Source: Candidatus Kerfeldbacteria bacterium
Lineage (GTDB): Bacteria > Patescibacteriota > Patescibacteriia > UBA9570 > XYC2-FULL-38-9
DNA: 64,000 nucleotides
Reading direction: 5' to 3'
Assembly: GCA_043813585.1 (NCBI GenBank)
Contig: JBDRKW010000020.1
Coordinates: forward strand, 193,185-257,184
Part shown: piece after piece, positions 313 through 60,711 of the stretch
How the letters are laid out: every line of letters starts with the position of its first letter
Position numbering within the stretch: the first letter of the stretch is position 1
Notes under the pieces: model-generated
What the model was told of the DNA's origin: nothing
The model's input: only the letters and a program-made list of their open reading frames with translations
Databases searched by the model: none
Program-made: the position numbers and the translations under genes

Positions 313-876
313 TTACCAGGGAGAATCCTTCAGTTTGAGCCAATAGCCGATATGATTTACGAGAATATGAAACACCGGTCCCACAAGAATAATAATCACC
401 CACATCACCCATGTCAGGTCAAAAAAGAGCATCGCAACCAACGCAGCACCGATCGCGAAATCCAGCTGATCGAACGGAAACCAGGACTGGCCCGGCTTGA
501 CGCTCACACGCCGTTTAAAGAAGGATTTAATCAAGTCGCCGATAATCGCGCCCGCTCCAAATACAAACCCAAACCATATTGGGGCTGTTGTAATATCAAA
601 GGGAGCCCAGCCTCTCATTGATGGGAAGTAATACGTCAACACATACTGCAGGATAAAAATCACGCCGCCAAATAGAACTGCAACAAGCATGCCCCGCCAT
701 GTCTTATGGTTGCCAAACAGCGGCCTTCCTCTGAACGTGCGCCCGCCGTCAATGGGTATTGCCAACGATTTGAATTTATCCTTAAACAATACCGGCGCCA
801 TATTTGCCACGCCTGCAGGCAAAAACAGCCAAAACATCTTGGCAATAAGCGTAAGGAACTCGAGTAACGTTGTCAT
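313..876 (-). CDS. CarS-like (CDP-archaeol synthase / DUF46 family) integral membrane cytidylyltransferase
   Basis: 187 aa, ~5 TM helices, motif 'PIDGGRTFRGRPLFGNHKTWRGM' resembling the CarS/CdsA-like signature; size matches CarS (~170-190 aa). Confidence 0.5.
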   Translation of the reverse strand: MTTLLEFLTLIAKMFWLFLPAGVANMAPVLFKDKFKSLAIPIDGGRTFRGRPLFGNHKTWRGMLVAVLFGGVIFILQYVLTYYFPSMRGWAPFDITTAPIWFGFVFGAGAIIGDLIKSFFKRRVSVKPGQSWFPFDQLDFAIGAALVAMLFFDLTWVMWVIIILVGPVFHILVNHIGYWLKLKDSPW

Positions 877-13669: not shown

Positions 13670-15622
13670 ATGGCCGTCAGTGAAGTCCAAAAAATACAGC
13701 TCGTCGCCCTCTCTAAATACAGAGACGGTATTATTGAGTTGCTCCAGGATATGGAGACTGTCGAGCTTATCGGTGAAACCGGCCATGAGGCGCTTATTCA
13801 GTCGCTTGAATATGATATTGCCCAGATTGACTTTGCAGTCCAGTTGATCGGCGAACACTACGAGGAAAAAATACCTTTTTTACAGAAACTCCGCGGTAAT
13901 AAGATTGAGATTACCAAGGAAGAGATGAAGAACGTGGTTGAAACTTTTGATTATAAAAAAATTACTGACGAGCTGACAGAAATCGATGCGAAATTGACTG
14001 AAGCCCGCAATATTATTTCAAAGGCCGGGGAGGAAATTGAGCTGCTGACCCCCTGGATCGCCTTACAAGTTTCACCGGTAGAATTTGAAAAAACTTCGTT
14101 AACCGGTGTTGTTCTCGGCATTTTTAAAACGGAGCAGTTCGACGAATTCAAGCAGAAAATCGCTGCGGTTTCATCGGAAATCGAAATCAATGTCGTATCG
14201 AAAAACGAAAAGTCGCTCTATGTGATGATTGTATTTTCAAATTCAGTCGGAGAAAAAATTACGCAACTTCTTGATGAAACAGATTTTGAAATGACCGACC
14301 TGCCGTATATTGAAGATCTTCCGAAAAACATCCTGGCAGAACTGAAAGAAAATATTGAAACAGCAAAAAAATCAGCTAAGGAATTTGAGGAAAAAATAAA
14401 GCACTACGGTTCGGAACTGTACCAGCTGCGCGTTGTTCGTGATTTCCTTTCATGGCAAAAGACCCAGAAGGAAACAGAACGATATATTGAAACTACAAAA
14501 AAATCATTCATCCTCCGGTTCTGGGTAGAAAAACGAAACCTCAAGATTCTTGAAAAGCACCTGACGAAAATCACGAATAATTACGTGCTAACCGAACTTG
14601 AACTGGACGAAGAAGAAGACATTCCAGTTCCGCTGCGAAACAGCGCACTATTCTCGCCATTTGAATCTGTCACCAACATCTACGGCGTACCGCGCAACAA
14701 TGAACCGGACCCTACGCCGTTTCTGGCCCCGTTTTTTGTGGTGTACTTCGGCCTGGCGCTTACGGACGCCGCATACGGTATTATGCTGGCACTTGGCGCA
14801 TTCCTTGCAATCAAAATACTAAAAATTCCAAAGCAGAATCAAAAACTCTTCAAAGTACTGATCTGGGGCGGTATTTCAACGTTCATTCTTGGCGCGTTAT
14901 TCGGGGGCTGGTTCGGAATTGATATTAATGTTGACAACCCTGTAGCAGACGCGCTCCGTTCAATCCGCATCCTTGATCCGCTCGCAAATCCAATTACTGT
15001 TCTCTTACTCACGCTTGTGCTTGGTATTTTCCAGGTCATGGTTGGCATCGGAATTAAAGGATGGTGGCTGATCAAGCAAAAAAATGTAAAGGACGCCATA
15101 ATGGATTCCGGCGTCTGGCTCTTCTTCCTCGGCAGCGCCTGCCTCTGGATTTTGGCAAACCAGGGAATCCTTCCTGACAGCACGCAACAAATCTTTCTCT
15201 ACATGATTTTGGCCGGCGTACTCGCACTCGTGGCAACGCAGGGCCGCAATAACAAGAATCCGTTCATGAAAATCCTCATGGGAATCGGCAGCCTGTACGG
15301 CCTGGTCGGTTATTTTTCCGATGTCCTCTCCTACTCCCGTCTGCTGGCGCTTGGCCTTTCAACGGCAATTATCGCTTCTGTCGTAAACCTTGTCGCGTTT
15401 TTGTTTAAGGATATGATTCCATGGGCCCCTCTGGGATGGGTCATCGCCATAGTCATTCTGATCGGCGGACATATTTTCAACCTGGCGATTAACGTCCTCG
15501 GCGCATACATCCATTCCGGACGTCTGCAGTTTGTTGAATTCTTCCCAAAATTTATGGAGGGCGGCGGCCGCCGTTTCAGGCCGTTGGCAAAAGAAAGCAA
15601 ATACGTCAGGCTGGTGGACTAA
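13670..15622 (+). CDS. atpI: V/A-type ATP synthase subunit I (a-subunit)
   Basis: 650 aa; soluble N-terminal half and C-terminal membrane domain with the conserved Arg helix 'LSYSRLLALGLS'. Confidence 0.9.
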   Translation: MAVSEVQKIQLVALSKYRDGIIELLQDMETVELIGETGHEALIQSLEYDIAQIDFAVQLIGEHYEEKIPFLQKLRGNKIEITKEEMKNVVETFDYKKITDELTEIDAKLTEARNIISKAGEEIELLTPWIALQVSPVEFEKTSLTGVVLGIFKTEQFDEFKQKIAAVSSEIEINVVSKNEKSLYVMIVFSNSVGEKITQLLDETDFEMTDLPYIEDLPKNILAELKENIETAKKSAKEFEEKIKHYGSELYQLRVVRDFLSWQKTQKETERYIETTKKSFILRFWVEKRNLKILEKHLTKITNNYVLTELELDEEEDIPVPLRNSALFSPFESVTNIYGVPRNNEPDPTPFLAPFFVVYFGLALTDAAYGIMLALGAFLAIKILKIPKQNQKLFKVLIWGGISTFILGALFGGWFGIDINVDNPVADALRSIRILDPLANPITVLLLTLVLGIFQVMVGIGIKGWWLIKQKNVKDAIMDSGVWLFFLGSACLWILANQGILPDSTQQIFLYMILAGVLALVATQGRNNKNPFMKILMGIGSLYGLVGYFSDVLSYSRLLALGLSTAIIASVVNLVAFLFKDMIPWAPLGWVIAIVILIGGHIFNLAINVLGAYIHSGRLQFVEFFPKFMEGGGRRFRPLAKESKYVRLVD

Positions 15623-15711
15623 CACCGGCACCTGATTTCTGTCTGTGACGCTGTCGCTGCCAGAAACCAGGTTTGACGCCTGGAAACGATCTAAATAACA
15701 AGATTAATTAA

Positions 15712-16197
<486 letters not shown>

Positions 16198-16201
16198 CCC
16201 G

Positions 16202-16771
16202 ATGGCTCTCAGCAACATTCTTCAGACAATTGAAGAAGACACGCAGAAGCAGATCGAGGAATTGAAAAAGGAAGGCGAACAGCGCAAAACAGAACTCCGC
16301 AAGGAACTGAACGCTGAAACGGAAAAGAAGAAGAAAGAACTGCTCGCCAAATTCGACCAGCGCGCGTCAAAAAAAATCGCCCAGGCATCGTGGGAATTTT
16401 CTTCACGCACCCAGACAGCGGTGCTGAAGAAGAAACAGGCGGTCCTGGATTCGGTATTCGACAAAGCGCTGAAGAATCTGGCTGACCTTCCCGAGAAACA
16501 ATACGTTGATGTGGTTGCATCGATGTTCAAGTCGCTCCCGAAAATGGAAAAGGGCGCAGAAGTGCTTTCAGCCAAGGGGAAGGAAAGCGCAACAAAAAAC
16601 TCTGCCGAAAAAGCGGGCGTATCAATCACCTTCTCCAAGGACACACTCGACAGTACCGGCGGCTTCATCGTCAAAGGCAAGGAAGTCAACATCGATATGA
16701 CCTTCGAAGCGCTGTTGCGCGCGTACCGTTCAGACCACGAGACCGATATTGCTTCTAAGCTGTTCGCATAA
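16202..16771 (+). CDS. atpE: V/A-type ATP synthase subunit E
   Basis: 189 aa starting MALSNILQTIEED..., long N-terminal charged helix plus C-terminal globular part; the ORF-track start at 16079 overlaps atpK out of frame and was rejected. Confidence 0.8.
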   Translation: MALSNILQTIEEDTQKQIEELKKEGEQRKTELRKELNAETEKKKKELLAKFDQRASKKIAQASWEFSSRTQTAVLKKKQAVLDSVFDKALKNLADLPEKQYVDVVASMFKSLPKMEKGAEVLSAKGKESATKNSAEKAGVSITFSKDTLDSTGGFIVKGKEVNIDMTFEALLRAYRSDHETDIASKLFA

Positions 16772-16777
16772 CGACCT

Positions 16778-17749
16778 ATGTCTCTCTATTCATTTCTCAC
16801 GGGTAAAATCCGGGTTCTGGAAAAGGACCTTCTGAACCAGATGGACGTCGACCGCATGGTCGATGCCCCGGATTTTGACGCTGCGTTCAAGGCGCTGAAT
16901 GACACGGACTACGGCTCGCATCTTCTGAATGTTGACCCTACGCAGTTCAAACAGGCGCTGGATTCGGAAACGCGCAGCGTCCGCGACCTGATGCTCCAAT
17001 GGATTGAAGAGCCGGCGCTGCTTGAATTCATGTTCATTAAGTTTGATGCGCATAACATCAAGCTTTACCTTAAGGCAAAAACAACCGGACAGGATGCCGC
17101 GATAACCGACGAATATGCCTCTCCTTCCGGCCTGACAGATCCTTCGCTCATTAAGAAGATTATTCTCGATGACGATTCTGAAACGGTGATCCATCCGACA
17201 ACCGATCAGATGTGGAAAGAAGTGCGCGACCGTCTCGGCAGCGAACCTACCGGATTCCAAATCGACTCTGTTGTGGACCTGGTCATGTTCGAAATCATGA
17301 ACGAGCGGGTGAACAAGGTTCCCGGTCCAATTGTCCGCCACCTCTACCAGATCCAGCGCGAAACTGCACTGGTGAAAACATTTGTCCGCGGCAAACTCCT
17401 GGGCACGCCGGCTGCAGAACTGAAACTCGTATTGCCGGATGAGTACCTGAAGCACTATGACCTCGATCTTGAACAGGCTGCGGAAATTCTGCCGATTGAA
17501 GTAAAGGTAAAAAAGGCGCTCGTGAACTACATCGAGAACAAGAGGCTCTGGGAATTTGAAAAGGAGCTGGAAGAAGCAGAACTCGCGGTTATCCGCGAGG
17601 CAAAATATGCGACATCCGGCCCGATGCCGGCGGTTGGCTACTTCTATGCCAAGCAAAGCGCCGTGCGCAACCTCCGCATGATTCTGACCGCCAAGATGAA
17701 CGGCATTCCGGCTGAAGAAATTAAACCGCGGGTCCGCCAACTCTACTAA
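16778..17749 (+). CDS. atpC: V/A-type ATP synthase subunit C (d-subunit homologue)
   Basis: 323 aa helical protein, position between E and F conserved. Confidence 0.85.
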   Translation: MSLYSFLTGKIRVLEKDLLNQMDVDRMVDAPDFDAAFKALNDTDYGSHLLNVDPTQFKQALDSETRSVRDLMLQWIEEPALLEFMFIKFDAHNIKLYLKAKTTGQDAAITDEYASPSGLTDPSLIKKIILDDDSETVIHPTTDQMWKEVRDRLGSEPTGFQIDSVVDLVMFEIMNERVNKVPGPIVRHLYQIQRETALVKTFVRGKLLGTPAAELKLVLPDEYLKHYDLDLEQAAEILPIEVKVKKALVNYIENKRLWEFEKELEEAELAVIREAKYATSGPMPAVGYFYAKQSAVRNLRMILTAKMNGIPAEEIKPRVRQLY

Positions 17750-17750
17750 T

Positions 17751-18071
17751 ATGAAAGACTATAAAATCGCCATTATCGGAACGCACGACTCCGTCCTTGG
17801 GTTCAAAGGGCTTGGGTTGGATGTGTTTGGCATTTCGTCAGAAGAAGAAGGCGAGCAGACGCTGAAACAGCTGGAACAATCAAACGACTATGCGGTCCTC
17901 TTCATTACGGAAGACTGGGTGCCGCGTCTTGAAAAATCATTAAGCAAATTCGAAGGCCGGGCGCTGCCCGCAATCCTCCCGATCCCGTCCCAAAAAGGCG
18001 CGACCGGAGAAGGCATTAAAAACCTTTCGCGGATTGTGGAGCAAGCAGTCGGTTCGGATATTATTGGATAG
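17751..18071 (+). CDS. atpF: V/A-type ATP synthase subunit F
   Basis: 106 aa 'MKDYKIAIIGTHDSVLGFKGLG' typical of subunit F; TAATATG junction with atpC. Confidence 0.8.
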   Translation: MKDYKIAIIGTHDSVLGFKGLGLDVFGISSEEEGEQTLKQLEQSNDYAVLFITEDWVPRLEKSLSKFEGRALPAILPIPSQKGATGEGIKNLSRIVEQAVGSDIIG

Positions 18072-18155
18072 GATGTATGGACTCGGAGTGAGTCCAATGA
18101 TGTACATCGAGTCGATACATTCTCTAAAATATCCCAAATAACGATAACTACACAT

Positions 18156-19904
18156 ATGAAGCAAGGAACAATTACAAAAGTAGCAGGAGCGCTCATACTC
18201 GCCGAAGGCATGGCTGATGCGAAGCTGTTCGAGGTGGTAAAAGTATCGGAGGAAAAACTTGTCGGCGAAGTCATTGAGCTTCACGGCGACACCGCATCTA
18301 TCCAGGTATATGAAGAAACAGCAGGCATTGGTCCCGGCGAACCGGTCTACCTCACCGGCCAGTCCCTTTCCGTGGAACTTGGCCCCGGCTTGCTGGAATC
18401 CATCTATGACGGCATTCAGCGGCCGCTCGCCGCTATTGAAGCGCAGGCAGGTCCGTTTATCACACGTGGCATTGAAGCTCCCGGTTTGGACCGCAATCGG
18501 AAATGGAAATTCGTGCCGGTAGTGAAAAAAGGCGATGAGGTCGTCGGCGGCGATGTTCTTGGCACGGTTGATGAAACCACGCTGATTCAGCACAAAGTCA
18601 TGGTACCGCCAACACTGTCCGGCAAAATCAAAGATATTAAGGAAGGTGAATTCACGGTTGAAGATGTGGTTGCCGTTCTGGAATCCGGCGAAGAAATCCA
18701 GATGATGCAGCGGTGGTCAATTCGCGAAGCACGCCCTGTTAAGGAAAAACTGCTGGCAACCGAACCGCTGGTCACCGGCACACGCGTTATCGACACTTTT
18801 TTCCCGATTTTGAAAGGAAGCGCCGGCTGCTCCCCTGGCCCGTTCGGTTCAGGCAAGACCGTGACGCAGCATCAGATCGCAAAATGGTCTGACGCGGACG
18901 TCATTCTGTTTATCGGTTGCGGCGAACGCGGAAATGAAATGACCGACGTGCTGATTGAGTTCCCGGAACTGAAGGACCCGAAATCAGGCGAGCCGCTCAT
19001 GAAGCGCACGATCCTGATCGCTAACACCTCAAACATGCCGGTGGCTGCCCGCGAAGCTTCAGTCTACACCGGTATCACCATCGCCGAATACTACCGCGAT
19101 ATGGGCTATAAAGTCGCCCTCATGGCTGACTCCACATCGCGCTGGGCAGAAGCAATGCGCGAAATGTCCGGACGCCTCGGAGAAATGCCCGGTGAAGAGG
19201 GCTATCCGGCGTATCTTGGCTCGCGCACGGCAGCGTTCTACGAACGTTCCGGTTATGTAAAAACCATCGGTGGCGACGACCGTGAAGGTTCGCTGACTGT
19301 TATTGGAACAGTCTCCCCTCCAGGCGGCGACCTGTCCGAGCCGGTGACGCAGAATACATTGCGCGTTGTCAAAGTTTTCTGGGCGCTTGATGCAACGCTT
19401 GCATACGCACGCCACTATCCGGCAATTAACTGGCTGAACAGCTATTCACTGAACATCGACCAGACAAACGAATATATGGATAAAGAAGGCGGCGACGGTT
19501 TTGTCGCTTACCGGACCGAAGCAATGAAAATCCTGCAGGAAGAAGCGGGGCTTCAGGAAATCGTCCGATTGGTCGGACTTGACTCACTTTCTTACCGGGA
19601 ACAGCTTCTTCTCGAAACCGCGAAACAGATTCGCGAGGACTTCCTGCAACAGAATGCATTTGACGATACAGACGCATTTTCATCCATTAAGAAAATGTAT
19701 CTGATGCTAAAGGCAATCCTGACCTTCTACAGCCACGGCAAGGACGCAGTCGAACGCGGCGTGAGCATCAGCCAGCTGCGCGAACTGCCGGTGACCAAGG
19801 ATATTGCACGAGCAAAGAGCATCCCTGAAGACAAGCTTGGCGACCTGGAGAAGCTGATTGACACCATCAGCTCGTCAGTCGACGCCCTTCAAGCCCAAGA
19901 ATAA
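18156..19904 (+). CDS. atpA: V/A-type ATP synthase catalytic subunit A
   Basis: 582 aa; P-loop 'GPFGSGKTV', non-homologous region insert, 'PPGGD' motif. Confidence 0.97.
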   Translation: MKQGTITKVAGALILAEGMADAKLFEVVKVSEEKLVGEVIELHGDTASIQVYEETAGIGPGEPVYLTGQSLSVELGPGLLESIYDGIQRPLAAIEAQAGPFITRGIEAPGLDRNRKWKFVPVVKKGDEVVGGDVLGTVDETTLIQHKVMVPPTLSGKIKDIKEGEFTVEDVVAVLESGEEIQMMQRWSIREARPVKEKLLATEPLVTGTRVIDTFFPILKGSAGCSPGPFGSGKTVTQHQIAKWSDADVILFIGCGERGNEMTDVLIEFPELKDPKSGEPLMKRTILIANTSNMPVAAREASVYTGITIAEYYRDMGYKVALMADSTSRWAEAMREMSGRLGEMPGEEGYPAYLGSRTAAFYERSGYVKTIGGDDREGSLTVIGTVSPPGGDLSEPVTQNTLRVVKVFWALDATLAYARHYPAINWLNSYSLNIDQTNEYMDKEGGDGFVAYRTEAMKILQEEAGLQEIVRLVGLDSLSYREQLLLETAKQIREDFLQQNAFDDTDAFSSIKKMYLMLKAILTFYSHGKDAVERGVSISQLRELPVTKDIARAKSIPEDKLGDLEKLIDTISSSVDALQAQE

Positions 19905-19922
19905 GTAAACAGATTCACATAT

Positions 19923-21323
19923 ATGGAAAAACAGTACAAAACAATCAGAGATGCGGCCGGCCCGCTCGTTGTGGTGGACAAAGTCGCAGATGTGAAATAC
20001 GAGGAGCTTGTCGACATTGAAATGCAGGACGGCAGCATGAAGCGCGGCCGCGTGCTTGAAATCGATAAGGATCGCGCCGTCGTGCAGATGTTTGAAGACA
20101 CGCGCGATATCAACCTTGAAGGTTCAACAGCAACCTTCCTGGGAAAAACCATGGACATCGGCGTTTCGCCGGACATGCTTGGCCGTGTATTCAACGGTTC
20201 CGGCAACCCGAAAGACGGCGGACCGGCTATTATTCCGGAAAAGAAGCTCGACATTAACGGCGCTCCGATCAATCCGTATTCCCGCAACTTCCCGAGCGAC
20301 TTTATCCAAACCGGCGTATCTGCCATTGACGGCATGACTACGCTCGTGCGCGGACAGAAGCTGCCGGTATTCTCCGGCGCCGGCCTACCGCATAACGAAC
20401 TAACAGCGCAAATCGCCAGGCAGGCAAAAGTCGTTTCATTCAACGACAAAGGCGAACAGACGGACAGCGACCAGAAATTCGCCGTGGTATTCGGCGCCAT
20501 GGGCGTGACGTTTGAAGAGGCGCAATTCTTCATCAACGAATTCAAGGAGACAGGCGCTATTGAACGCGCAGTGGTCTACATCAACCTGGCAGATGATCCT
20601 GTGGTTGAGCGCATTACCCTGCCCCGCATTGCCCTGACAACGGCAGAATACCTTGCTTACGAAAAAGACATGCACGTATTGGTCATTTTGACCGACCTTA
20701 CCAACTATTGCGAGGCGCTGCGTGAAATTTCCGCCGCTCGCAAGGAAATCCCTGGCCGCCGCGGTTATCCGGGCTACCTCTACACCGACCTTGCAACACT
20801 GTATGAACGTGCAGGACGCATTAAAGGCAAAGAAGGCTCGGTAACCCAGATTCCTATCCTGACGATGCCTGAAGACGATAAAACGCATCCGATCCCTGAC
20901 CTTACCGGGTATATTACCGAAGGACAGGTCATGATTTCGCGCGAATTGCATAAGAAGGACCTCTATCCGGCCATTGACGTACTGCCGTCGCTGTCCCGCC
21001 TGATGCAGGGCGTGGCCGGCAAGGTAACGCGCGAAGACCACGCAAACGTCAAAGACCAGCTGTTTGCGGCATACGCCCGCGGCAAGGAAGCGCGCGAACT
21101 CGCCATCATTCTCGGTGAAGCCGCATTATCGGACGCTGACAAGAAATATGTTGAATTTGCCGAACGGTTCGAGAAGGAATATATGGCGCAGGACCGCGAC
21201 ACCGACCGGTCGCTGACTGAAACGCTGAATATCTCGTGGGATCTCCTGTCGATCCTTCCAAAGTCAGAACTGAAGCGCGTGAAGGAAGAATTCATCGAAA
21301 AATACGGCAAGGCTAGCAAATAA
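19923..21323 (+). CDS. atpB: V/A-type ATP synthase subunit B
   Basis: 466 aa regulatory subunit, degenerate P-loop 'SGAGLPHNE'. Confidence 0.97.
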
Positions 21324-21325
21324 CA

Positions 21326-21985
21326 ATGGCTCAATTATTGAACGTTAATCCAACCCGCCAGGAGCTCCTGAAGCTGAAGCGCAAACGGAAAATGGCCGTG
21401 CGCGGCCACAAGCTGCTTAAGGAAAAACGCGACGGCCTGATGAAGCAGTTCATGGCGATTATCCGCGAGGCGAAGGAGCTGCGCGGAAACATGGAAGAAA
21501 CGCTCGGCGAGGCGTTCAAGAGCTTTGTATTTGCCTCTGCTGTCATGCGTTCAGACGCAATGGAAGAGGCGCTGTCCATGCCTGCAAAAAAGGTGACGCT
21601 GCAGTCGGAGACCAAGAATGTCATGAGCGTCAACATCCCGCAGTTCGAGTATAAGGAAGAAGGCGGATTCCTATCATACTCGCTTGGAACCACCGCTTCC
21701 GACCTTGATGATTCCCTGAATACGTTCAATGATGCGCTGAAAGGCATGGTGAAGCTCGCGGAGATTGAACATTCGGCAAAATTGCTGGCAGAAGAGATCG
21801 AAAAAACGCGCCGACGTGTGAACGCCCTTGAATACGTTTTTATACCGCAAATCGTGGATACGATTAAATATATCCAGGCCAAGCTGAACGAACAGGAGCG
21901 CGGCACGATTGTCACCATGATGAAAGTTAAAGACATTCTCAACCAACAGGAACAGAAAGAAAAAGAGGCAAAGCAAGCCGCGTAA
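21326..21985 (+). CDS. atpD: V/A-type ATP synthase subunit D (central stalk)
   Basis: 219 aa coiled-coil 'LLKLKRKRKMAVRGHKLLKEKRD'. Confidence 0.9.
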   Translation: MAQLLNVNPTRQELLKLKRKRKMAVRGHKLLKEKRDGLMKQFMAIIREAKELRGNMEETLGEAFKSFVFASAVMRSDAMEEALSMPAKKVTLQSETKNVMSVNIPQFEYKEEGGFLSYSLGTTASDLDDSLNTFNDALKGMVKLAEIEHSAKLLAEEIEKTRRRVNALEYVFIPQIVDTIKYIQAKLNEQERGTIVTMMKVKDILNQQEQKEKEAKQAA

Positions 21986-37125: not shown

Positions 37126-38439
37126 CTAATAATTGTGGAATACCCAGTTCGCAAACGTCCAGTCTGCCAGCGCATACGCCTCCTGAAATATGGTGTTGTA
37201 TTCAGGATTTCCAAGCAGCACCACGATAATGGTATGGCCTGTTTCTTTCTCAATTATTTTTGTAACAAGCGTCCTATCCGCAGAACCCGGCAGATACCCG
37301 GTTTTAAACGCAAGAAGTTCGTACTTGCCGTTTCCTTCAAACTTGTTAGTTGTGTAAAGTGAAATTTCACGGTCTGAATTTGCCAGATCGAACGTATACA
37401 CACCCGTAGATGCGGCCTCACTAAATAAATCCGGGTACGCATCAAACACGGTTCGTGCAAGTTGTGCGACATTTCCCGCCGAAGAAACATTATGAGAATT
37501 TAATCCGCTCGGTTCAACGAACGACGTCTTCTTCAGGTTCATCTCTGCCATCCTGTTGTTCATCTGCGTCACAAATAGGTCCTGTTCCGGCCATGAAGCT
37601 TCTGCAGAAAGCATAATCGCCATATTATTTGCCGACTTCATGAGAACACCCATCAACACCTGCTTGAGCGTTAAGACATCGCCGCCATGTAGTGGAACCG
37701 TCGCGCCAATGCGGTCGCAAGCTGAACGGTACTGAACTTCTTTATTTAAGTCCGGCTTTGACTCCAAAAACACAAGTGTCGTAGCCAGTTTTGTCAGTGA
37801 TGCGATCGAACGCTGCTTCTTGGCGTCTTTGCGGAAAAGAAATTTTCCGCTCTTCTCATCAATGACCGCTGCCGTATCAGAATGCGGGGGCAGGTAGTAC
37901 GGGTTATAGGCAACGCTTCGTACCGGTACCTCTTTCTTCCACTTATGCGTCACAGCTATAATTTTTCCGGACTGCGCCGGAAGTACTGCATTCAACAGTA
38001 GTACATTTTTATCGACGATGGTGTGAAGCTTCACCCATTTGTCCGTGTCCGCTTTCAGGTACATCACCCGGTGTCTGCGGTCTTTGTCGCCACTCCGATA
38101 TTTCAGAGCAACGGGAATCGGCTGGTTTGGCTGATTGCTGAACCAATAGGAATAGACAATGCGTTTTGACCGCCATCGCTTTGGAATCGATGGCATTTCA
38201 GGACGCGAGCCGTACGGTCCCCTGTCGCGCAAACGCACGCGCGTATCGGCATTCAACGATCCTGCTGGTATCGTCAACTGTACATCCTTCCACTTCACCG
38301 ATACATCGTGATTCTCTAAAACATGTTTGGGAATTTTTGTGCTGTACCAATCCCGCTCTGCATGAACTGCCGAAGGCAGACAAACAAAGAAAACCAGCGC
38401 AATGCCAACGATCCACCTATTCATAACGCAGCGCTTCAA
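37126..38439 (-). CDS. D-alanyl-D-alanine carboxypeptidase (peptidase S11, PBP5-like) with extra N-terminal domain
   Basis: SxxK 'SIASLTKLAT', SxN 'KSANNMA', KTG 'FKTGYLPGS'; ~190-aa N-terminal extension with signal peptide. Confidence 0.8.
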   Translation of the reverse strand: MKRCVMNRWIVGIALVFFVCLPSAVHAERDWYSTKIPKHVLENHDVSVKWKDVQLTIPAGSLNADTRVRLRDRGPYGSRPEMPSIPKRWRSKRIVYSYWFSNQPNQPIPVALKYRSGDKDRRHRVMYLKADTDKWVKLHTIVDKNVLLLNAVLPAQSGKIIAVTHKWKKEVPVRSVAYNPYYLPPHSDTAAVIDEKSGKFLFRKDAKKQRSIASLTKLATTLVFLESKPDLNKEVQYRSACDRIGATVPLHGGDVLTLKQVLMGVLMKSANNMAIMLSAEASWPEQDLFVTQMNNRMAEMNLKKTSFVEPSGLNSHNVSSAGNVAQLARTVFDAYPDLFSEAASTGVYTFDLANSDREISLYTTNKFEGNGKYELLAFKTGYLPGSADRTLVTKIIEKETGHTIIVVLLGNPEYNTIFQEAYALADWTFANWVFHNY

Positions 38440-42611: not shown

Positions 42612-44054
42612 TTATCCCTTAATAACCGCAAGCGGCCGCAAGCGGGCAACCCTGCGCGCAAGCCGGGCGCTATCAACCACTAAAACAACTTCATCAACGT
42701 CCTTATATGCCAGCGGCGCCTCTTCGGCAATGCCTGGTACGGATGCTGACCGCACAATAATACCCCGCTCCTGAAGTTCGCTCTTAATCGCCTTTCCGTG
42801 GAATTTCTTCTTGGCAGCATGGCGTGACATTGTACGGCCAGCTCCATGGCAGCACGATCCGAAAGACTCCAACATTCCCTCGTTTGTACCGGCCAGAACA
42901 TACGAGGCAGTACCCATAGTCCCGGGTATCAAGACTGGCTGCCCGACAGCCCTGTATGCTTCAGGGATTTCCGGATGACCCGGACCAAATGCACGCGTGG
43001 CACCTTTTCTGTGAACAATGACCTTTTTCCTGCTGCCATCCAACTCATGCTCTTCTATTTTTGCAATATTGTGCGCAACATCATATACAATGGACAATGT
43101 ACCTTTGCTCCCGAATAACCGCTCCCATCCTTCGCGAACGCGATGCGTAATCATCTGCCGGTTTGTCCAGGCAAAATTCGCTGCCGCCGCCATTGCCGCA
43201 TAATACTGCTTCCCCTCTTCCGATGAAAACGGAGCACACGCCAGTTCCCGGTCCGGCAACTCAATGCCGTAGCGCGCCATCGCGCCGACCATGAGGCGAA
43301 TGTAGTCGGTTGCCACCTGGTGGCCCAGGCCCCGGGAACCGGTATGAATCATTACTGTTACCTGGCCTTTTTTCAAACCATACGCTTCTGCAGCGTCTTT
43401 ATCGAAGATTTCATCAACAACGCCAGCTTCTGCAAAATGATTTCCGGCACCGAGCGTACCCAGCTGGTCCCGTCCGCGCTGCTTGGCCCGCTCAGAAACT
43501 GCACCTGCTTCAGCATGTTCCAACCTGCCGTTAGACTCAATATGAGCCAAATCATCCTCTTCGCCCAGGCCATTCTTAACCGCCCACTCAACGCCGTTCT
43601 CAAGAACATTATCCATATCCGCATCGCTTAGCTTCCACTCACCGCCCCGGCCGACACCGGAAGGGATAACCCCAAACATTTCGCGGGCAACCGATTCTTC
43701 CTCCCCTGAAACGTCTTGTTCTATCAGTTCCGAACGCAACAACCGTACCCCGCAATTGATGTCATATCCGATTCCTCCGGGTGAAATAATCCCATCCGGA
43801 TATTCAATAGCCGCAACGCCTCCAACAGGAAATCCATATCCCTCGTGCATATCCGGCATCCCAATAGCGAATTTCTGTATACCCGGCAGCATTGATACAT
43901 TTATTAATTGGTCCAGCGAGCGGTCTTCACGGATGTCTTCCAGCATTTTTTTTGATGCATACACGCGCACCGGCACGTTCATGCCGTCGCGAACTCCGAC
44001 CGGCAGCTCCCAGATGACATCGCTGATCTTTTTAAAAAGATGCTGTTCAAACAT
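42612..44054 (-). CDS. rtcB: RNA-splicing ligase RtcB (3'-phosphate/5'-OH RNA ligase)
   Basis: 480 aa; metal and GMP-His motifs 'DMHEGYGFPVGG', 'GYDINCGVR', 'AGNHFAE', 'SCCHGAGR'. Confidence 0.93.
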   Translation of the reverse strand: MFEQHLFKKISDVIWELPVGVRDGMNVPVRVYASKKMLEDIREDRSLDQLINVSMLPGIQKFAIGMPDMHEGYGFPVGGVAAIEYPDGIISPGGIGYDINCGVRLLRSELIEQDVSGEEESVAREMFGVIPSGVGRGGEWKLSDADMDNVLENGVEWAVKNGLGEEDDLAHIESNGRLEHAEAGAVSERAKQRGRDQLGTLGAGNHFAEAGVVDEIFDKDAAEAYGLKKGQVTVMIHTGSRGLGHQVATDYIRLMVGAMARYGIELPDRELACAPFSSEEGKQYYAAMAAAANFAWTNRQMITHRVREGWERLFGSKGTLSIVYDVAHNIAKIEEHELDGSRKKVIVHRKGATRAFGPGHPEIPEAYRAVGQPVLIPGTMGTASYVLAGTNEGMLESFGSCCHGAGRTMSRHAAKKKFHGKAIKSELQERGIIVRSASVPGIAEEAPLAYKDVDEVVLVVDSARLARRVARLRPLAVIKG

Positions 44055-44057
44055 ACG

Positions 44058-44495
44058 TCATATGTCAAAAACAATTATTGTTTCATATTCGCCATCAGCA
44101 TTTTTCACAATATCAGCCTCATGGTAGGTTACCGCTTTAACATCATCGTCAAATCCATCAATACTACTGCCCTTCAGCGTGGCAGTTAAAGCCGTTTCTG
44201 TAATGGATGAAAAGTCGACAGTGCAAAAAACAGCTTTTTGTTCATGGGAATTCAACAGGACTTCAGAAAGAAAATCGACCAACAACGCGGTCATATCGGG
44301 CGAGTCTATGGCAATCCCCACCTCAACCGCCTCCGCATCCTTCCTCTCTGCAGAACTATCTTTACAAAATGACTTTGATAATAATTCACTCAACCCCTCA
44401 AAAGCAGAAGCAAACAATTCTTCCTGAGTGGCTCCTGCCACCTTCATCCTGATGTCGGCCGTATGGCCGATGAATTCAAATTTTTTCATGTTCAC
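44058..44495 (-). CDS. archease (RtcB activator)
   Basis: 145 aa 'FEFIGHTADIRMKV ... VKAVTYHEADI' archease fold signature. Confidence 0.8.
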   Translation of the reverse strand: MNMKKFEFIGHTADIRMKVAGATQEELFASAFEGLSELLSKSFCKDSSAERKDAEAVEVGIAIDSPDMTALLVDFLSEVLLNSHEQKAVFCTVDFSSITETALTATLKGSSIDGFDDDVKAVTYHEADIVKNADGEYETIIVFDI

Positions 44496-45085
44496 CCCTT
44501 TAGCGCATAATGCTTGATCGTCTCATAGACAGGTGTATCACCGGCATAGATTGATTCCATCAGGTCAACCACATCAACCTGAATGCCCATCTTTCCTTCC
44601 GGTGTATCCGGGATACGCAATACGTCGGCAATGGATGCATTATCAAAGCGCGCAAGCGTCACGTGCGGTATCGGCTGGTGGTTGCTTTCCTTCATGCATA
44701 TCTGCTCTCCGACAACTGAATCGATATCTTCCACTAATTGCCTGTAAACAGGATTCAGATTAAATAGCGCCCAAACCATCCGCGGACGCCTGCCCGGCGG
44801 CCCCAACTGAAAGGCATTAAACGCCAATTCAAACGGAGGAATACTGTCTGTAACCTGCTGCAATGCATCAATAAGATTTGGGATATCTTCATTCTGTACC
44901 GCACCAAAAAAACGCACCGTTATATGCATATTTGCCTTTCGTGTCCAGCGAATACCGCCGATCTTGCCGTTCATTTTCTGAATCCCGGCTAGCACAGATG
45001 ACACTTCCTGTGGAAGCGGAATAGAGCAAAATAAACGAAGTTTCTGCTTACCCATACGAGCATTATTATACTGATTGTATCCCAC
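44492..45085 (-). CDS. thpR: RNA 2',3'-cyclic phosphodiesterase (ThpR/LigT, 2H family)
   Basis: two H-x-T/S-x motifs 'HITVRFFG' and 'HVTLARF'; 197 aa. Confidence 0.8.
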   Translation of the reverse strand: MGYNQYNNARMGKQKLRLFCSIPLPQEVSSVLAGIQKMNGKIGGIRWTRKANMHITVRFFGAVQNEDIPNLIDALQQVTDSIPPFELAFNAFQLGPPGRRPRMVWALFNLNPVYRQLVEDIDSVVGEQICMKESNHQPIPHVTLARFDNASIADVLRIPDTPEGKMGIQVDVVDLMESIYAGDTPVYETIKHYALKG

Positions 45086-47547: not shown

Positions 47548-48237
47548 CTATATTTTGTAGATGACATCCTTGCGTTCGACCACTATCTTCCATGCCCGTC
47601 GCCTCGCCGCCTGCAACAGTTGGCGGTTCGGATTAAAGCAAATCGGATTGTCTACCATGGACAAAAATCCGATATCCGATTCGGTATCCCCGACTCCGAT
47701 CGACCCGATAAGCGAAAAATTGCCTTTTTCCAGCGCCCGCGACAGAATTACGCCTTTATCTTTTATCAATTCCTGGAACTCCACCTTGCCCGTATACCTC
47801 CCGTTCGCCCCCACTTCAAATAGCTGGCCATACACTTTATGGAAACCAAGATGCCGGCAAAATTGTTCAACGGCTTCTTTTGGTGAATGGGATATTGCGA
47901 GCAGAGAATAATTTCGCTTCCGAAGGTCTTTTACAAGATCGCGCGTGTAGCGGTATGTTCTGTCTTTATGTTCCGCAACGACCCTGATTGCGATCTTCCT
48001 GAATGTTGTCTGCGGCAGCCCTTTAATATTTTTATGGAACGCCTCAATTACATCCTGTATATAATCGTCATACGAACCTTTGCGGTCCATCCAGCGGCCG
48101 CGCGCCGCGCTATACTGCGCAATCACGCTCGATTTCCAGATCCCTTCTTTTACCAGCGCTTCGGTAATTTCAATCAGCAGGCTCGACCGAAAGATCGTCC
48201 CGTCAATATCGAAAATGGCTACGCGTTGCTTAGCCAT
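47548..48237 (-). CDS. HAD-IB family hydrolase (phosphoserine phosphatase-like)
   Basis: 'VAIFDIDGTIF' motif I, 'GDTESD' motif IV-like; 229 aa. Confidence 0.75.
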   Translation of the reverse strand: MAKQRVAIFDIDGTIFRSSLLIEITEALVKEGIWKSSVIAQYSAARGRWMDRKGSYDDYIQDVIEAFHKNIKGLPQTTFRKIAIRVVAEHKDRTYRYTRDLVKDLRKRNYSLLAISHSPKEAVEQFCRHLGFHKVYGQLFEVGANGRYTGKVEFQELIKDKGVILSRALEKGNFSLIGSIGVGDTESDIGFLSMVDNPICFNPNRQLLQAARRRAWKIVVERKDVIYKI

Positions 48238-49622
48238 TAGAGTAAATGCATATCTTCAATCTCGCTGCGCACGCCGCGCAATACGACCTCTTCAATATGG
48301 TATGCGCCGTTTCGGGGCGCGTCCAGAAAACCCTCCACCGCAGCCTGCGCCAGCCACCCGGACGACAGCCAATCCTGCAACCACTCCTGCGTATACCTGG
48401 GATCTTCCTGCTCAACGCCGGAACCAACGGCATGGAGCCAGGCCTTATTAAACTCTTCCTGGCTGCCGATGGACGGCGCCATGATGATCGGTAGTCCCAG
48501 ACCGGCATAAAATGACATTTCACTCGGCTTGGTCCAGAGAATATCCGTGGTTAGCAACGCCTGGTTCATCTTAGCAAAGTAATCCATTTTATTTTCATCA
48601 TAAATGATGGATACCCCGCCTTTGTGCTTCAATTTCATGTGCAGCCGCTTCACTTCATTATCGTAATAGCTGAACACGTCGCTGCGTGAGCCGGCCACCA
48701 GGTTCAAATTGATCTTTCCCTTATCGATAGAATCATGAAGGCTGTCCAGTATCTGGATTCCAAGTTCTCGCTGCGCACCGGCACCGCCCACGGCAAATGT
48801 AATCGTCAGCGGACGCTTGGGCTTCATGGCGCAATATTTCGCCCCAAAATAATATTCTACCGTTCGTCGGTATTTATTGCGGTAACGAAATTCCGGGTCC
48901 AGGTTGCACAAACGTTCGCCGATACTTTTTTTCAGGATGCTCAATGATGCCCCTCCGATATTCTCTTTTGGCAATGGAAACCCGGTGATATTAATATTCT
49001 TTTCCTGCACCCCATACAGCATCAGGCGCTCTTTCACGCGGCGGTTCGGCGCGAGGTAGTTAATCCGGCTCTTCTTCGGATCCATCGCCGCCCAGGCACG
49101 GCTTACATCCGTGTCCGTGCAGATGCAGTAGATATCACCCTTATATCCATGCTCCTCTGCAAAAAATGCCGTCGTAAAAAAGGATGTTACATACGGCAGC
49201 GGATCCTTATTCAATATTTCAATGAGATCCCTGCCCCACCCGCCTTTGATAGATGCGTAGATCTGCCGCAGCTGCAGGCTCGGCTTGGACAAATCGCGTT
49301 CCGGATAAAACGGTTTTATCCGCTGCATATAATCCATTACGCCAAATATCCACTCACCAATAAGCGGCAGGTTCTTCATTCTCGAAATCTTCTCATAAAT
49401 GGAACGTCCGCCTTCCCACAGGCGCCTGTCGCTCGCCGGAATACCCGGGTAGCGGTTTGCGGTGATGATCTCGCCGTTTTTATCGCCCCATCCCACCGGG
49501 CTAGCCGCAATTTCCTTTAACGGATAAACCGCCCGCTGGTGTCCGTAACCCATGTCCACAGTCACGATATATGCCCTTTTAAATGTCTTTTTCTGCGTTT
49601 CCATAACGATTGAAGTATACAA
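48237..49622 (-). CDS. GT-B glycosyltransferase, MGDG-synthase/UgtP-like (GT28-like)
   Basis: 461 aa; N-terminal 'VTVDMGYGHQRA' and mid 'TITFAVGGAGAQ' resemble the two Gly-rich loops of GT28 diacylglycerol glycosyltransferases; weak. Confidence 0.45.
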   Translation of the reverse strand: MYTSIVMETQKKTFKRAYIVTVDMGYGHQRAVYPLKEIAASPVGWGDKNGEIITANRYPGIPASDRRLWEGGRSIYEKISRMKNLPLIGEWIFGVMDYMQRIKPFYPERDLSKPSLQLRQIYASIKGGWGRDLIEILNKDPLPYVTSFFTTAFFAEEHGYKGDIYCICTDTDVSRAWAAMDPKKSRINYLAPNRRVKERLMLYGVQEKNINITGFPLPKENIGGASLSILKKSIGERLCNLDPEFRYRNKYRRTVEYYFGAKYCAMKPKRPLTITFAVGGAGAQRELGIQILDSLHDSIDKGKINLNLVAGSRSDVFSYYDNEVKRLHMKLKHKGGVSIIYDENKMDYFAKMNQALLTTDILWTKPSEMSFYAGLGLPIIMAPSIGSQEEFNKAWLHAVGSGVEQEDPRYTQEWLQDWLSSGWLAQAAVEGFLDAPRNGAYHIEEVVLRGVRSEIEDMHLL

Positions 49623-49657
49623 GAAAACAGCCTTACAGTGAAATCATTTATACTTAT

Positions 49658-50473
49658 CTATAATCCAACGACTTTCCGCGTTGCCCAGTCAACGAAACGG
49701 TCAGGTAAAAACTGTGCCAGCCATATCATCGGCGCGTTGCTGCGCGGTGCGACATATCGTGTTCTCGGCTTCTTTGCTTCAACAGCATGGACGATAGCTT
49801 TTACTACTGACTTTGTGGAATAGCCGCCATCCCAAAATGTATTTTCCGCTTGTTTCATCTTCGGGATCTCAAATGCGTATGCCGATTCCTCTGTTAACCA
49901 TTCATGCTTCGTAGCCTGCATTTCTTGGTTAAATCCGGTGTTGATCTTTCCGGGTTCGATCAACGAAACAAACACACCAAACTGTTCAAGTTCAGTACGC
50001 AGGTTATCCGCAACAGCTTCCAACGCAAATTTTGTCATATGGTACGCGCCCATATATGGAACAACCAGCCGACCGGCAGTAGAGCCGACAATGATGATTC
50101 GTCCTTCGCCTTTGCGGATCAAACGCTGTCCGACTAATTGCGCGAGATGAAGATTCGCAAACACGTTGGTCTCAAAATTACTGCGCACCCGTTCCATGGG
50201 GATTTCAATAAGAGGTCCGGATTCGCCCACACCGGCATTATTAATCAACACATCCGGTTTTCTTTTTGCAGCCTGCTTGCGGTCCTGCTCATCCAAAACA
50301 TCCAGCTTGATAAAGGTCATTTTCAACCCATGCTCCTTCACATGCTGCTGCAACTCATTCAAGTCCTCGAGCGACGCCGCTGATGCAATGACGTCGTGTC
50401 CGCGTTCCGCAAGAGCAATTGCGGTATCGCGTCCAATCCCAGTCGCTGCCCCAGTTACTAAAACTTTGCTCAT
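49658..50473 (-). CDS. SDR-family oxidoreductase
   Basis: 'VLVTGAATGIGRD' cofactor motif, 'NNAG', YxxxK 'YHMTK'. Confidence 0.85.
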   Translation of the reverse strand: MSKVLVTGAATGIGRDTAIALAERGHDVIASAASLEDLNELQQHVKEHGLKMTFIKLDVLDEQDRKQAAKRKPDVLINNAGVGESGPLIEIPMERVRSNFETNVFANLHLAQLVGQRLIRKGEGRIIIVGSTAGRLVVPYMGAYHMTKFALEAVADNLRTELEQFGVFVSLIEPGKINTGFNQEMQATKHEWLTEESAYAFEIPKMKQAENTFWDGGYSTKSVVKAIVHAVEAKKPRTRYVAPRSNAPMIWLAQFLPDRFVDWATRKVVGL

Positions 50474-50475
50474 TA

Positions 50476-50994
50476 CTATCGGATCACTTTCGCGGGAACT
50501 CCTCCTACAACGCTTTTAACCGCAACATCCTTTACTACAACCGCGTTCGCTCCGATTGTTGCACCGTCTCCGACTTTTACCGGACCGAGAATCTTTGCAC
50601 CTGCAGCAATGGTAACATCATCACCAATGGTCGGTGCTCCGCTGTAAGCATCACCCTTCACTCCAACTGTAACACCCTGTGATAGAATCACGTTCTTGCC
50701 AATAACGGCGTCTTTATGAACAAAGATTCCGCTGAAATGATTGATAAACACTCCGGGACCGATAGTTGCGTGGCGCGAAATTGAAATCCCCCAACTCATC
50801 TCGACCCAGAGCTTCAAGAAAAAATAAATTAGAAGACCCAGCTGTTTTACTATAGGTACTCGCATTCGTGTGAAGAAACTCCCAAATCGATAGACCGCCA
50901 TCGCATGAACGCTCGGCAAGAATAGCAGCATTACAAAACTTAACCCGTGTAGCTCCTGTAATTCCTTAATTCGTTTTATGTCTTTGTATAGCAT
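50476..50994 (-). CDS. hexapeptide-repeat O-acetyltransferase (serine acetyltransferase/WcaB-like)
   Basis: 172 aa; C-terminal LbH repeats 'IGDDVTIAAGAKILGPVKVGDGATIGANAVV'. Confidence 0.7.
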   Translation of the reverse strand: MLYKDIKRIKELQELHGLSFVMLLFLPSVHAMAVYRFGSFFTRMRVPIVKQLGLLIYFFLKLWVEMSWGISISRHATIGPGVFINHFSGIFVHKDAVIGKNVILSQGVTVGVKGDAYSGAPTIGDDVTIAAGAKILGPVKVGDGATIGANAVVVKDVAVKSVVGGVPAKVIR

Positions 50995-57787: not shown

Positions 57788-58804
57788 ATGAAAATCAGCC
57801 GCTTCAATAAATTCTCACTCTTTTTTCTGGCGACACTTATCGTCATTTTGATACTGGTAAAATTTTCAGAGCTTGAAGAAATAATCAAACTAGTCAGGCA
57901 AACCAACTGGCTGTTCATAGGAATCGCCATTTTTTTCCAGTCGCTGACCTACTTCGCCCTGGCGGGCCTGTACAAGGCCGTGCTAAAAATCCTGCAACAC
58001 AGCATTTCTTTCAAAAAACTCAGCAAGCTTGCCGTTGCATCCACGTTCCTGAACCAGATGCTGCCATCAGCCGGTTTGGTCAGCCTGACGCTGATCACAA
58101 GCAGCCTGAAAAAAGAAAAAATCGACAAAAGCGAAAGCACGCTGACGGCCGTGGTGGGTTTTATTCTGATAGGTTCGATTTATCTCTGCTGCCTGATCGT
58201 CAGTATAACCTACCTTCTTCTTTACATCGAAATAAATAAAACGGAAGCTCTTGTGCTGGCAGCCATACTGGTGCTCACGATCGTAATCATTTTCTGCCTG
58301 GTGTACCTGCTGCGGCACAAAAAAACATTCTATGCGCTCGCCGGGCTCCTATCCCGGATTGTAAACAGGGTTGCTCGGATCTTCAATAACGGTGAGTATA
58401 TACGGGAACAGGAAATTATTTTTTTTGTTGATGGATTTTTCCTCGGCATTCAGACAATCACGAAAAATAAGAAGCGCCTGATAGTCCCCTGTATTCTGGC
58501 GGCCCTATTTTTCTTCAGCGATATATTTACCATTTTCTTCATCTTCCTGTCCTTTGGTCTGCAGCTCAATCTGGGAATCATCATAATCGGTTCCGTTCTT
58601 GCTGACGCGCTCGGCTTTGCAGTCGCTGTTCCCACCAGCCTTGGAGTTTTCGAGGTCTCGATGGCGGGTATTTACAGCACCCTTGGCGTTCCGCTTGCAT
58701 CTGCCGTGTTCGCGACCCTGATGTATCGAGCCGTCTCTTTCTGGCTCCCAATCCCGATCGGGTTTCTGTTTTATCGCAATCTGATCAAGGAAAAAAAGAA
58801 ATAA
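57788..58804 (+). CDS. flippase-like / lysylphosphatidylglycerol-synthase TM-region (UPF0104) protein
   Basis: 338 aa, 8 TM, family typically paired with glycolipid glycosyltransferases. Confidence 0.7.
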   Translation: MKISRFNKFSLFFLATLIVILILVKFSELEEIIKLVRQTNWLFIGIAIFFQSLTYFALAGLYKAVLKILQHSISFKKLSKLAVASTFLNQMLPSAGLVSLTLITSSLKKEKIDKSESTLTAVVGFILIGSIYLCCLIVSITYLLLYIEINKTEALVLAAILVLTIVIIFCLVYLLRHKKTFYALAGLLSRIVNRVARIFNNGEYIREQEIIFFVDGFFLGIQTITKNKKRLIVPCILAALFFFSDIFTIFFIFLSFGLQLNLGIIIIGSVLADALGFAVAVPTSLGVFEVSMAGIYSTLGVPLASAVFATLMYRAVSFWLPIPIGFLFYRNLIKEKKK

Positions 58805-59997: not shown

Positions 59998-60711
59998 TCA
60001 GCGGATATCATCAAAAGATAAGGGGGGTTTATGCAGGATGAAAAATCGAACATAATTCTTTATCGTATAGCAGAGTAACTTCAACGAACCGCTTTGCAGC
60101 CGGCGTGCAGACACCTCGACGAAAATATCAGGGCAGTACGCAACCGACCCCTGCTCCTTCATCTTGCAAACCAAGTCAATATCCTCGCACGAATGAAGTG
60201 ACCTATCATATCCGCCACTGCGCCGAAACGCCTCTGACCTGAATGCCAGGTTATTGCCTGCTGCGTTGTCATTCCCAAACAGCCTACTGACACGGAGGAA
60301 CGCCGGGTATACTATGCGGCTCGAAACTCGGGCAGCCCACCCGCCATCAAAAAAATATACCGGCCCATACACGGCCGCAGCATCGGGGCGAGCAATAAAA
60401 AAATCGTTAATTTGTTCCAGCCAGTCGGGCGGCACAATGGCATCGGCGTCTGTTGAGGCGATAATTTCATGCGTAGCGGCATCGGAACCCTCCTGCCGCG
60501 CGCGCGTCACCCCTTTTTCGCCCGGAAAAATAAATTGATATGCCAGCCCTTCCCGATCCAGCAGCTGTTGAGCGACCGCCTTTGTATTGTCGTCCCCTGT
60601 TATGGCCAGGACAACTTCAAAATCTCGATACGTCTGCCGTGCAAGGGACTGCAGCGTTCTTTCTATATACTTCTCCTCATTATATGACGGAATAACAACA
60701 GAGATCTGCAT
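59998..60711 (-). CDS. GT2 family glycosyltransferase (GT-A)
   Basis: 'ISVVIPSYNEEKYI', 'DADA' DxD motif. Confidence 0.85.
   Translation of the reverse strand: MQISVVIPSYNEEKYIERTLQSLARQTYRDFEVVLAITGDDNTKAVAQQLLDREGLAYQFIFPGEKGVTRARQEGSDAATHEIIASTDADAIVPPDWLEQINDFFIARPDAAAVYGPVYFFDGGWAARVSSRIVYPAFLRVSRLFGNDNAAGNNLAFRSEAFRRSGGYDRSLHSCEDIDLVCKMKEQGSVAYCPDIFVEVSARRLQSGSLKLLCYTIKNYVRFFILHKPPLSFDDIR

Follow-up and report, generated by a model that had tools for sequence, protein, structure and literature searches.

The gene considered here lies on the minus strand at positions 313 to 876 (coordinates that include the stop codon) of a 64-kb stretch of DNA, referred to below as the window, and encodes a 187-aa CTP:lipid-phosphate cytidylyltransferase of the CarS family, of a CPR/DPANN-type subfamily. 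It starts with ATG. Directly upstream on the same strand is gyrB (883 to 2952), whose stop codon is separated from that ATG by 6 nt, so that the two genes are probably co-transcribed. Just past the CarS-like stop codon, at 283 to 310, sequence and RNAfold indicate an imperfect hairpin, then T6 on the plus strand; it was unflagged by a consensus terminator scan. The hairpin is likely to be the end of the transcription unit and may act bidirectionally. The DNA beyond the gene, from 1 to 310, has a GC content of 62%, against about 47% for the neighbouring genes, and contains no convincing ORF; Rfam yielded nothing at E<=1 for positions 1 to 400, and no DNA similar to 1 to 310 was found in the relatives. 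This segment is truncated at the start of the window and may represent the 3' portion of an RNA gene so far undescribed.

In the Kerfeldbacteria clade, the CarS gene has settled into the order pheS-pheT-gyrB-CarS-secE-nusG-L11-L1, as seen in full at locus L081. Many Kerfeldbacteria-type genomes have orthologues of 50-70% identity with the gyrB synteny preserved, and an intermediate order, gyrB-CDP-OH_P_transf-CarS, occurs at loci L007, L011 and L012.

The bacterial setting described in the first-pass annotation is borne out by the 58 ORFs of our scan of the window. These include PheT with B3_4, B5 and FDX-ACB domains, PheS, GyrB and an S11 DD-carboxypeptidase (37126-38439), accompanied by an 84-nt tRNA-Tyr; an AddA-type helicase-nuclease and a MacB-type ABC system are also encoded. 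An identical (100%) protein in NCBI comes from a Candidatus Kerfeldbacteria MAG, where it is named CDP-2,3-bis-(O-geranylgeranyl)-sn-glycerol synthase (CDP-archaeol synthase).

The CarS family assignment, made originally from the strings PIDGG and NHKTWRG in a 187-aa protein, proved correct: both strings are present, at residues 41-45 and 56-62 respectively, and the match to the family is well past chance. The CarS-like profile PF01864 matches with E=7e-31 and 108 bits (Pfam cut-off 22) and is aligned over its full length, residues 7-187 corresponding to profile positions 1-175 of 175. The CdsA profile PF01148 scores far lower, at 28.4 bits, and its match is partial, residues 57-127 corresponding to profile positions 169-231 of 264; a better score for CdsA, named in the first-pass annotation as counter-evidence, was thus not obtained. 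The NCBIfam equivalog model for CarS, NF003114, is also passed, narrowly, with 152.6 bits where 148 are required.

A sequence search of the PDB with the 187-aa protein gave a sole match, the A. pernix CarS structure 5GUF (E=3e-11), to which the GxxKT, GDxxxSFxKRR and DQLDF stretches align residue for residue (HMMER). K58, T59, G62, D114, S118, K121, R122, D136 and D139 are identical in 5GUF, while R61 is Glu there. Among 30 relatives, K58-T59-x-R61-G62, D114-x3-S118-x2-K121-R122 and D136-x2-D139 are invariant, and 15 columns of their alignment are invariant overall, the KRR and DxxD motifs among them; the roles of these conserved polar motifs in the CTP/Mg2+ cavity are taken from the CarS literature (PMC9385802). 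An AlphaFold2 model built on the 30 relatives has a pLDDT of 94.6, and Foldseek places it on 5GUF with TM scores of 0.68/0.79, an rmsd of 3.3 and a probability of 1.00. Of the 50 Foldseek matches listed, 5GUF is the only one with E <= 0.001, and no CdsA structure is among them. Hydropathy and the model agree with a multi-helix membrane protein, in keeping with the five transmembrane helices first proposed for it and with the five of 5GUF.

Relatives of the protein number about 2,300 among cluster representatives and occupy at least 576 loci of GTDB species genomes, of which the best 80 are all from Patescibacteria or DPANN (Woese-/Nanoarchaeota). The Patescibacteria in that set include Kerfeld-, Komeili-, Magasanik-, Andersen-, Peregrini- and Roizmanbacteria, Saccharibacteria and Microgenomates, and the archaeal loci are truly archaeal, with Dph2 and the RNase P protein Rpp21 present. 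Several GTDB/ENA records (L006, L007, L011, L014, L021, L022, L031, L037 and others) carry titles such as 'uncultured Gammaproteobacteria', 'Methanosarcinales' or 'Pirellulales'; they show Patescibacteria-type or DPANN-type synteny together with the CarS-like gene, and the submitters' taxonomy labels look wrong.

The window protein has a median identity of 43% to CPR members, 42% to DPANN members and 34% to a named set of 16 canonical CarS proteins from TACK, Methanobacteriota, Aenigmarchaeota and Micrarchaeota; its nearest non-CPR relatives are archaeal (DPANN), at 38-47% identity. A neighbour-joining tree (180 columns, 200 bootstraps, our own numpy implementation) separates the 16 canonical sequences from the CPR plus Woese-/Nanoarchaeota group in 99% of bootstraps. 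There is thus a distinct CPR/DPANN-type CarS subfamily, and the protein does not group with canonical archaeal CarS in this tree. Neighbour joining on 180 columns makes the tree exploratory. The CPR sequences of the CPR/DPANN group form at least five clades interleaved with archaeal ones, with weak internal support and an unresolved backbone; inter-domain exchange is likely, and because of those internal branches we claim no direction of transfer.

We took a census of genes lying within 1.5 kb of the CarS-like gene at 81 loci (36 bacterial-type and 45 archaeal). A CDP-alcohol phosphatidyltransferase is the neighbour at 52 of the 81 loci, 19 bacterial-type and 33 archaeal. Phosphatidylserine decarboxylase is found at 20 of the 45 archaeal loci and none of the bacterial-type ones, and gyrB has the opposite distribution, lying upstream at 18 of the 36 bacterial-type loci and at no archaeal one. 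PHP-domain phosphoesterases occur on both sides (6/36 and 14/45). Natural fusions of CDP-OH_P_transf with CarS and of PAP2/DUF212 with CarS exist among the relatives, and Saccharibacteria-type genomes contain a tight CDP-OH_P_transf-PHP-CarS operon with overlapping genes. Transferase adjacency, fusions and operons together indicate that a CDP-lipid product is needed, and argue against a kinase-type role.

The PHP-domain protein, of about 216-259 aa (L083:9354-10004, L084:9345-10001, L086:9301-10008, L028:1707-2486 and 22 other loci), often lies between the transferase and the CarS-like gene, with the genes overlapping, in Saccharibacteria-type CPR and DPANN archaea alike. It is a candidate for a lipid-phosphate phosphatase step (of PGP, PIP or AGP type).

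At three Patescibacteria loci (L022, which also contains a bacterial trigger factor, L052 and L067) the order is a PF01553 (PlsC-type) acyltransferase, an AMP-binding (acyl-activating) enzyme and the CarS-like gene. At L083 the CarS operon is flanked by a lipid kinase of DAGK_cat type and a PF01553 acyltransferase, and DAGK_cat is present at four Saccharibacteria loci. Such acyltransferase, AMP-binding and DAGK_cat enzymes make phosphatidic acid from lyso-phosphatidic acid, free fatty acid and diacylglycerol, and phosphatidic acid is the expected input of a CDP-diacylglycerol synthase. A PF01553 acyltransferase also directly adjoins the CarS-like gene in truly archaeal DPANN contigs, at L073:9327-9884 (minus strand) and L028:532-1164 (plus strand), the former also carrying Dph2 and Rpp21; this adjacency hints at the handling of ester lipids in some DPANN archaea.

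In the window genome itself, the membrane-lipid cluster is about 57 kb from the CarS-like gene. As first noted from the letters, it includes a CDP-alcohol phosphatidyltransferase and glycosyltransferases. The transferase (60711-61277, minus strand, 188 aa) matches PF01066 with 64.9 bits and carries the motif DxxDGxxAR...GxxxExxxD; its best NCBIfam match is pgsA, at 40.7 bits and under the model's cut-off. It is homologous to the transferases that adjoin CarS elsewhere (jackhmmer 3.6e-15; 30-35% identity to those of L014 and L029), is the predicted consumer of the CDP-lipid, and in this genome has been relocated to the glycolipid cluster. A GT2 glycosyltransferase gene (59998-60711, minus strand) overlaps the transferase gene by 1 nt, so that the two share an operon. 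Next to it is a GT4 glycosyltransferase (58805-59995, minus strand) whose best match is alpha-monoglucosyl-diacylglycerol synthase (Mgs), full-length at 172.9 bits, under that model's cut-off of 400, and a flippase-like membrane protein with an LPG_synthase_TM (MprF-type) domain (57788-58804, plus strand) adjoins these lipid/glycolipid genes.

None of the 58 ORFs of the window encodes a GGGPS/PcrB, a UbiA-type DGGGPS, a G1P dehydrogenase, a GGR or a polyprenyl synthase, and the annotated related loci likewise contain no GGGPS/PcrB, UbiA-type DGGGPS, G1P dehydrogenase or GGR gene. When six-frame translations of the window and of 87 related loci were searched by jackhmmer from E. coli CdsA, CarS-like ORFs alone were reached. 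A cdsA gene is thus missing from the window, while the window and 87 loci are too little DNA to speak for absence genome-wide.

These observations support, as the best and a moderately probable reading, the view that the CarS-like protein is a substitute for CdsA in lipid salvage. It would be a small, functional, multi-helix membrane cytidylyltransferase that uses CTP and Mg2+ to convert a membrane glycerolipid phosphate to its CDP-activated form, which the CDP-alcohol phosphatidyltransferase at 60711-61277 would then use in attaching polar head groups. The substrate would most likely be fatty-acyl phosphatidic acid, in a lipid-auxotrophic Patescibacteria cell that may rebuild it from scavenged host lipids: lysolipids, diacylglycerol and free fatty acids. 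The enzyme would then do CdsA's job, the synthesis of CDP-diacylglycerol, and CDP-archaeol would not be made. The subfamily is common to two symbiont radiations without lipid synthesis of their own, the Patescibacteria and the Woese-/Nanoarchaeota of the DPANN.

The family, the fold, the conservation of motifs, the split of the subfamily and the coupling to neighbouring genes are shown by the data. We infer both the acyl substrate and the replacement of CdsA, and favor the CdsA-like role because the bacterial neighbours are of acyl type and because independent lipidomics of CPR points the same way. In a <0.2 um fraction in which CPR made up 165 of 186 organisms, acylglycerols accounted for all 72 intact polar lipids, and complete lipid synthesis is missing from CPR genomes (PMC7242380). 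A genome study of Saccharibacteria inferred a route from phosphatidic acid through CDP-DAG to PG, CL and PI, starting from salvaged lipids (PMC6031116). The resemblance of the window's GT4 to a diacylglycerol glucosyltransferase is also on this side. The first-pass annotation had offered two readings, a divergent CdsA substitute and mixed or archaeal-type ether lipid chemistry. The former gains from the coupling to CDP-alcohol transferases, the acyl-lipid neighbours and the lack of cdsA in the window; the latter went unsupported, with the ether-lipid genes absent from the window and annotated loci and the CPR fractions acylglycerol-only.

Several points tell against an acyl substrate. The protein passes an equivalog model for CDP-archaeol synthase, and its nearest relatives outside CPR are archaeal. 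Characterized CarS is selective for DGGGP; purified AfCarS prefers DGGGP to phosphatidic acid, and it does not complement an E. coli cdsA mutant (PMC9385802), so that family membership taken alone argues for an isoprenoid ether substrate. The window gene is in a housekeeping (gyrB) context, and the acyl-lipid context belongs to relatives from CPR clades other than its own; the PF01553 and AMP-binding families are both broad; and the lack of cdsA and ether-lipid genes applies to 64 kb of a 351-kb contig of the genome.

A wider proposal, which is possible though we lean against it, is that the subfamily is the core of a portable lipid-salvage module used in both domains, in which a tail-promiscuous or acyl-specific CDP-lipid synthase is exchanged horizontally in disregard of the 'lipid divide'. 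Its parts would be the CarS-like enzyme, the CDP-alcohol transferase, the PHP-family phosphatase and, in some cases, a PlsC-type acyltransferase. If this were true, ultra-small symbionts would put new head groups on whatever host lipids they steal, some DPANN archaea would process ester-linked acyl lipids, and most Patescibacteria would have swapped CdsA for an enzyme of an archaeal family.

The closest rival to the acyl-specific reading is that the enzyme is indifferent to the lipid tail, accepting acyl-ester or isoprenoid-ether phosphatidates according to what the host provides. Such an enzyme would explain movement between bacterial and archaeal symbionts, and the interleaving of CPR and DPANN sequences, at 38-47% identity and with an unresolved backbone, is consistent with it, as are the PF01553 acyltransferases beside the CarS-like gene even in the archaeal contigs L073 and L028. 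In crude form the activity of M. thermautotrophicus was indifferent to ester or ether linkage and to glycerol stereochemistry, but it still needed geranylgeranyl chains (PMC9385802). The interleaving comes from a neighbour-joining tree of 180 columns with weak internal support; we regard such breadth as rather unlikely.

That the protein is a genuine CDP-archaeol synthase, in a bacterium that makes or takes up DGGGP or archaetidic acid and has a mixed or archaeal-type membrane, we consider improbable. Passing the CarS equivalog model, the ApCarS fold, the DPANN archaea as nearest non-CPR relatives and the preference of characterized CarS for DGGGP (PMC9385802) all agree with it, and GGGPS together with DGGGPS has been reported from one Parcubacteria genome (PMC7852524). 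Against these stand the lack of GGGPS, DGGGPS, G1PDH and polyprenyl synthase in the window and annotated related loci, the acyl-lipid enzymes that adjoin the gene in CPR relatives, the acylglycerol-only composition of CPR-dominated fractions (PMC7242380) and the 99% support for the split from canonical CarS.

The CTP-dependent lipid kinases belong to the same superfamily as CarS and CdsA, and a polyprenol or lipid kinase resembling dolichol kinase or phytol kinase, active for example in recycling undecaprenol for peptidoglycan, would not be a cytidylyltransferase at all. The PAP2/DUF212 fusions also fit polyprenyl-phosphate cycling, and the DD-carboxypeptidase indicates that the genome makes peptidoglycan. 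The best full-length matches are nonetheless to CarS models and a CarS structure, and the pervasive operons shared with CDP-alcohol phosphatidyltransferases, like the fusions to them, require a CDP-lipid product; this coupling makes a kinase very improbable. Least credible of all is a nonfunctional or decaying relic of a gene acquired horizontally from an archaeon, which would suit the isolation of the gene from other lipid genes in this genome but is already contradicted by conservation, the ORF being intact with all family-invariant residues present, orthologues at 50-70% identity retaining the gyrB synteny across many Kerfeldbacteria-type genomes, and the structure model highly confident.

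Returning to the CdsA-like reading, the protein is CarS by ancestry and fold, outside the canonical archaeal clade, and CdsA-like by proposed function only. It shares with archaeal CarS (AfCarS and ApCarS, 5GUF) the PF01864 family, the fold, the KT..G, D..S..KRR and DxxD motifs, a similar size (187 aa vs 174 for the A. pernix protein) and a CDP-alcohol phosphatidyltransferase as partner. It differs in its bacterial (Patescibacteria) host, in an identity of about 34% and a separate subfamily with 99% bootstrap support, in some 13 extra residues between TM2 and TM3 as compared with 5GUF, in a context, for itself and its relatives, of housekeeping (gyrB) or acyl-lipid genes rather than ether-lipid ones, and in a substrate that is likely acyl-phosphatidic acid, not DGGGP. 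With bacterial CdsA (PF01148; E. coli CdsA, TmCdsA) it has in common the superfamily and catalytic core, reflected in the partial PF01148 match at 57-127 and in the reach of the E. coli CdsA-seeded jackhmmer search to CarS-like ORFs, as well as the proposed reaction and pathway position. The E. coli enzyme, however, is 285 aa long, and the full-length match of the window protein is to CarS.

The nearest logic described to date is that of lipid-auxotrophic, genome-reduced archaea (DPANN; Panguiarchaeum), which have no lipid-core pathway, keep CarS, PgsA/PssA-type transferases and, in DPANN, phosphatidylserine decarboxylase, and re-headgroup the lipids they acquire (PMC12411855). Those archaea are presumed to work on ether lipids, whereas here the enzyme is in a bacterium from a radiation with acylglycerol membranes. 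Bacteria of the FCB group and Cloacimonadota are also known to carry archaeal-type lipid genes and likewise bear on the 'lipid divide'; they have GGGPS and DGGGPS, are without CarS, and have been proposed to use CdsA (PMC7852524). The window genome is their mirror image, with CarS present and no GGGPS or DGGGPS seen in the 64 kb.

The existence of the gene is not new, since it is already annotated in public records and common in Patescibacteria. Our search of the literature for CarS, CDP-archaeol or cdsA together with CPR, Patescibacteria, Saccharibacteria or DPANN found no paper on CarS in Patescibacteria in the library searched, and Coleman 2019, Méheust 2019, Tian 2020 and a Saccharibacteria genetics preprint contain no relevant mention. 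The novelty, all of it computational, lies in the separation of the subfamily, in the acyl-lipid neighbours of the bacterial genes and in a new reading of the substrate. CarS counts as a hallmark of membrane synthesis in archaea, and its family is nevertheless widespread in Patescibacteria, with at least 576 GTDB species loci shared with DPANN. Bacteria discussed to date as bridging the 'lipid divide' have GGGPS and DGGGPS without CarS (PMC7852524); the pattern here is the reverse, with CarS present, no ether-lipid genes seen in the 64 kb, and acyl-lipid salvage genes around it in relatives. The label 'CDP-archaeol synthase' on hundreds of bacterial MAGs probably names the wrong substrate. Should CDP-diacylglycerol be the product, an enzyme essential to bacteria would have undergone non-orthologous replacement by one of an archaeal family; the case would also provide a natural system for studying what determines lipid-tail specificity in CarS vs CdsA, and a concrete entry point to the way in which CPR cells auxotrophic for lipids rebuild their membranes with those of the host.

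Three other gene groups of the window deserve mention. A complete A/V-type (archaeal/vacuolar-type) ATPase operon at 13670-21985 (plus strand), with subunits I, c, E, C, A, B and D, adds to CarS another system of archaeal flavour in the window. At 42612-45085 (minus strand), an RtcB RNA ligase, an archease and a LigT-type 2',3'-cyclic phosphodiesterase/2'-5' ligase are clustered, forming a module for RNA repair and splicing of a type characteristic of archaea. Finally, a HAD-IB phosphatase, a 461-aa DUF6938 protein, a short-chain dehydrogenase and a hexapeptide acyltransferase are clustered at 47548-50994 (minus strand).
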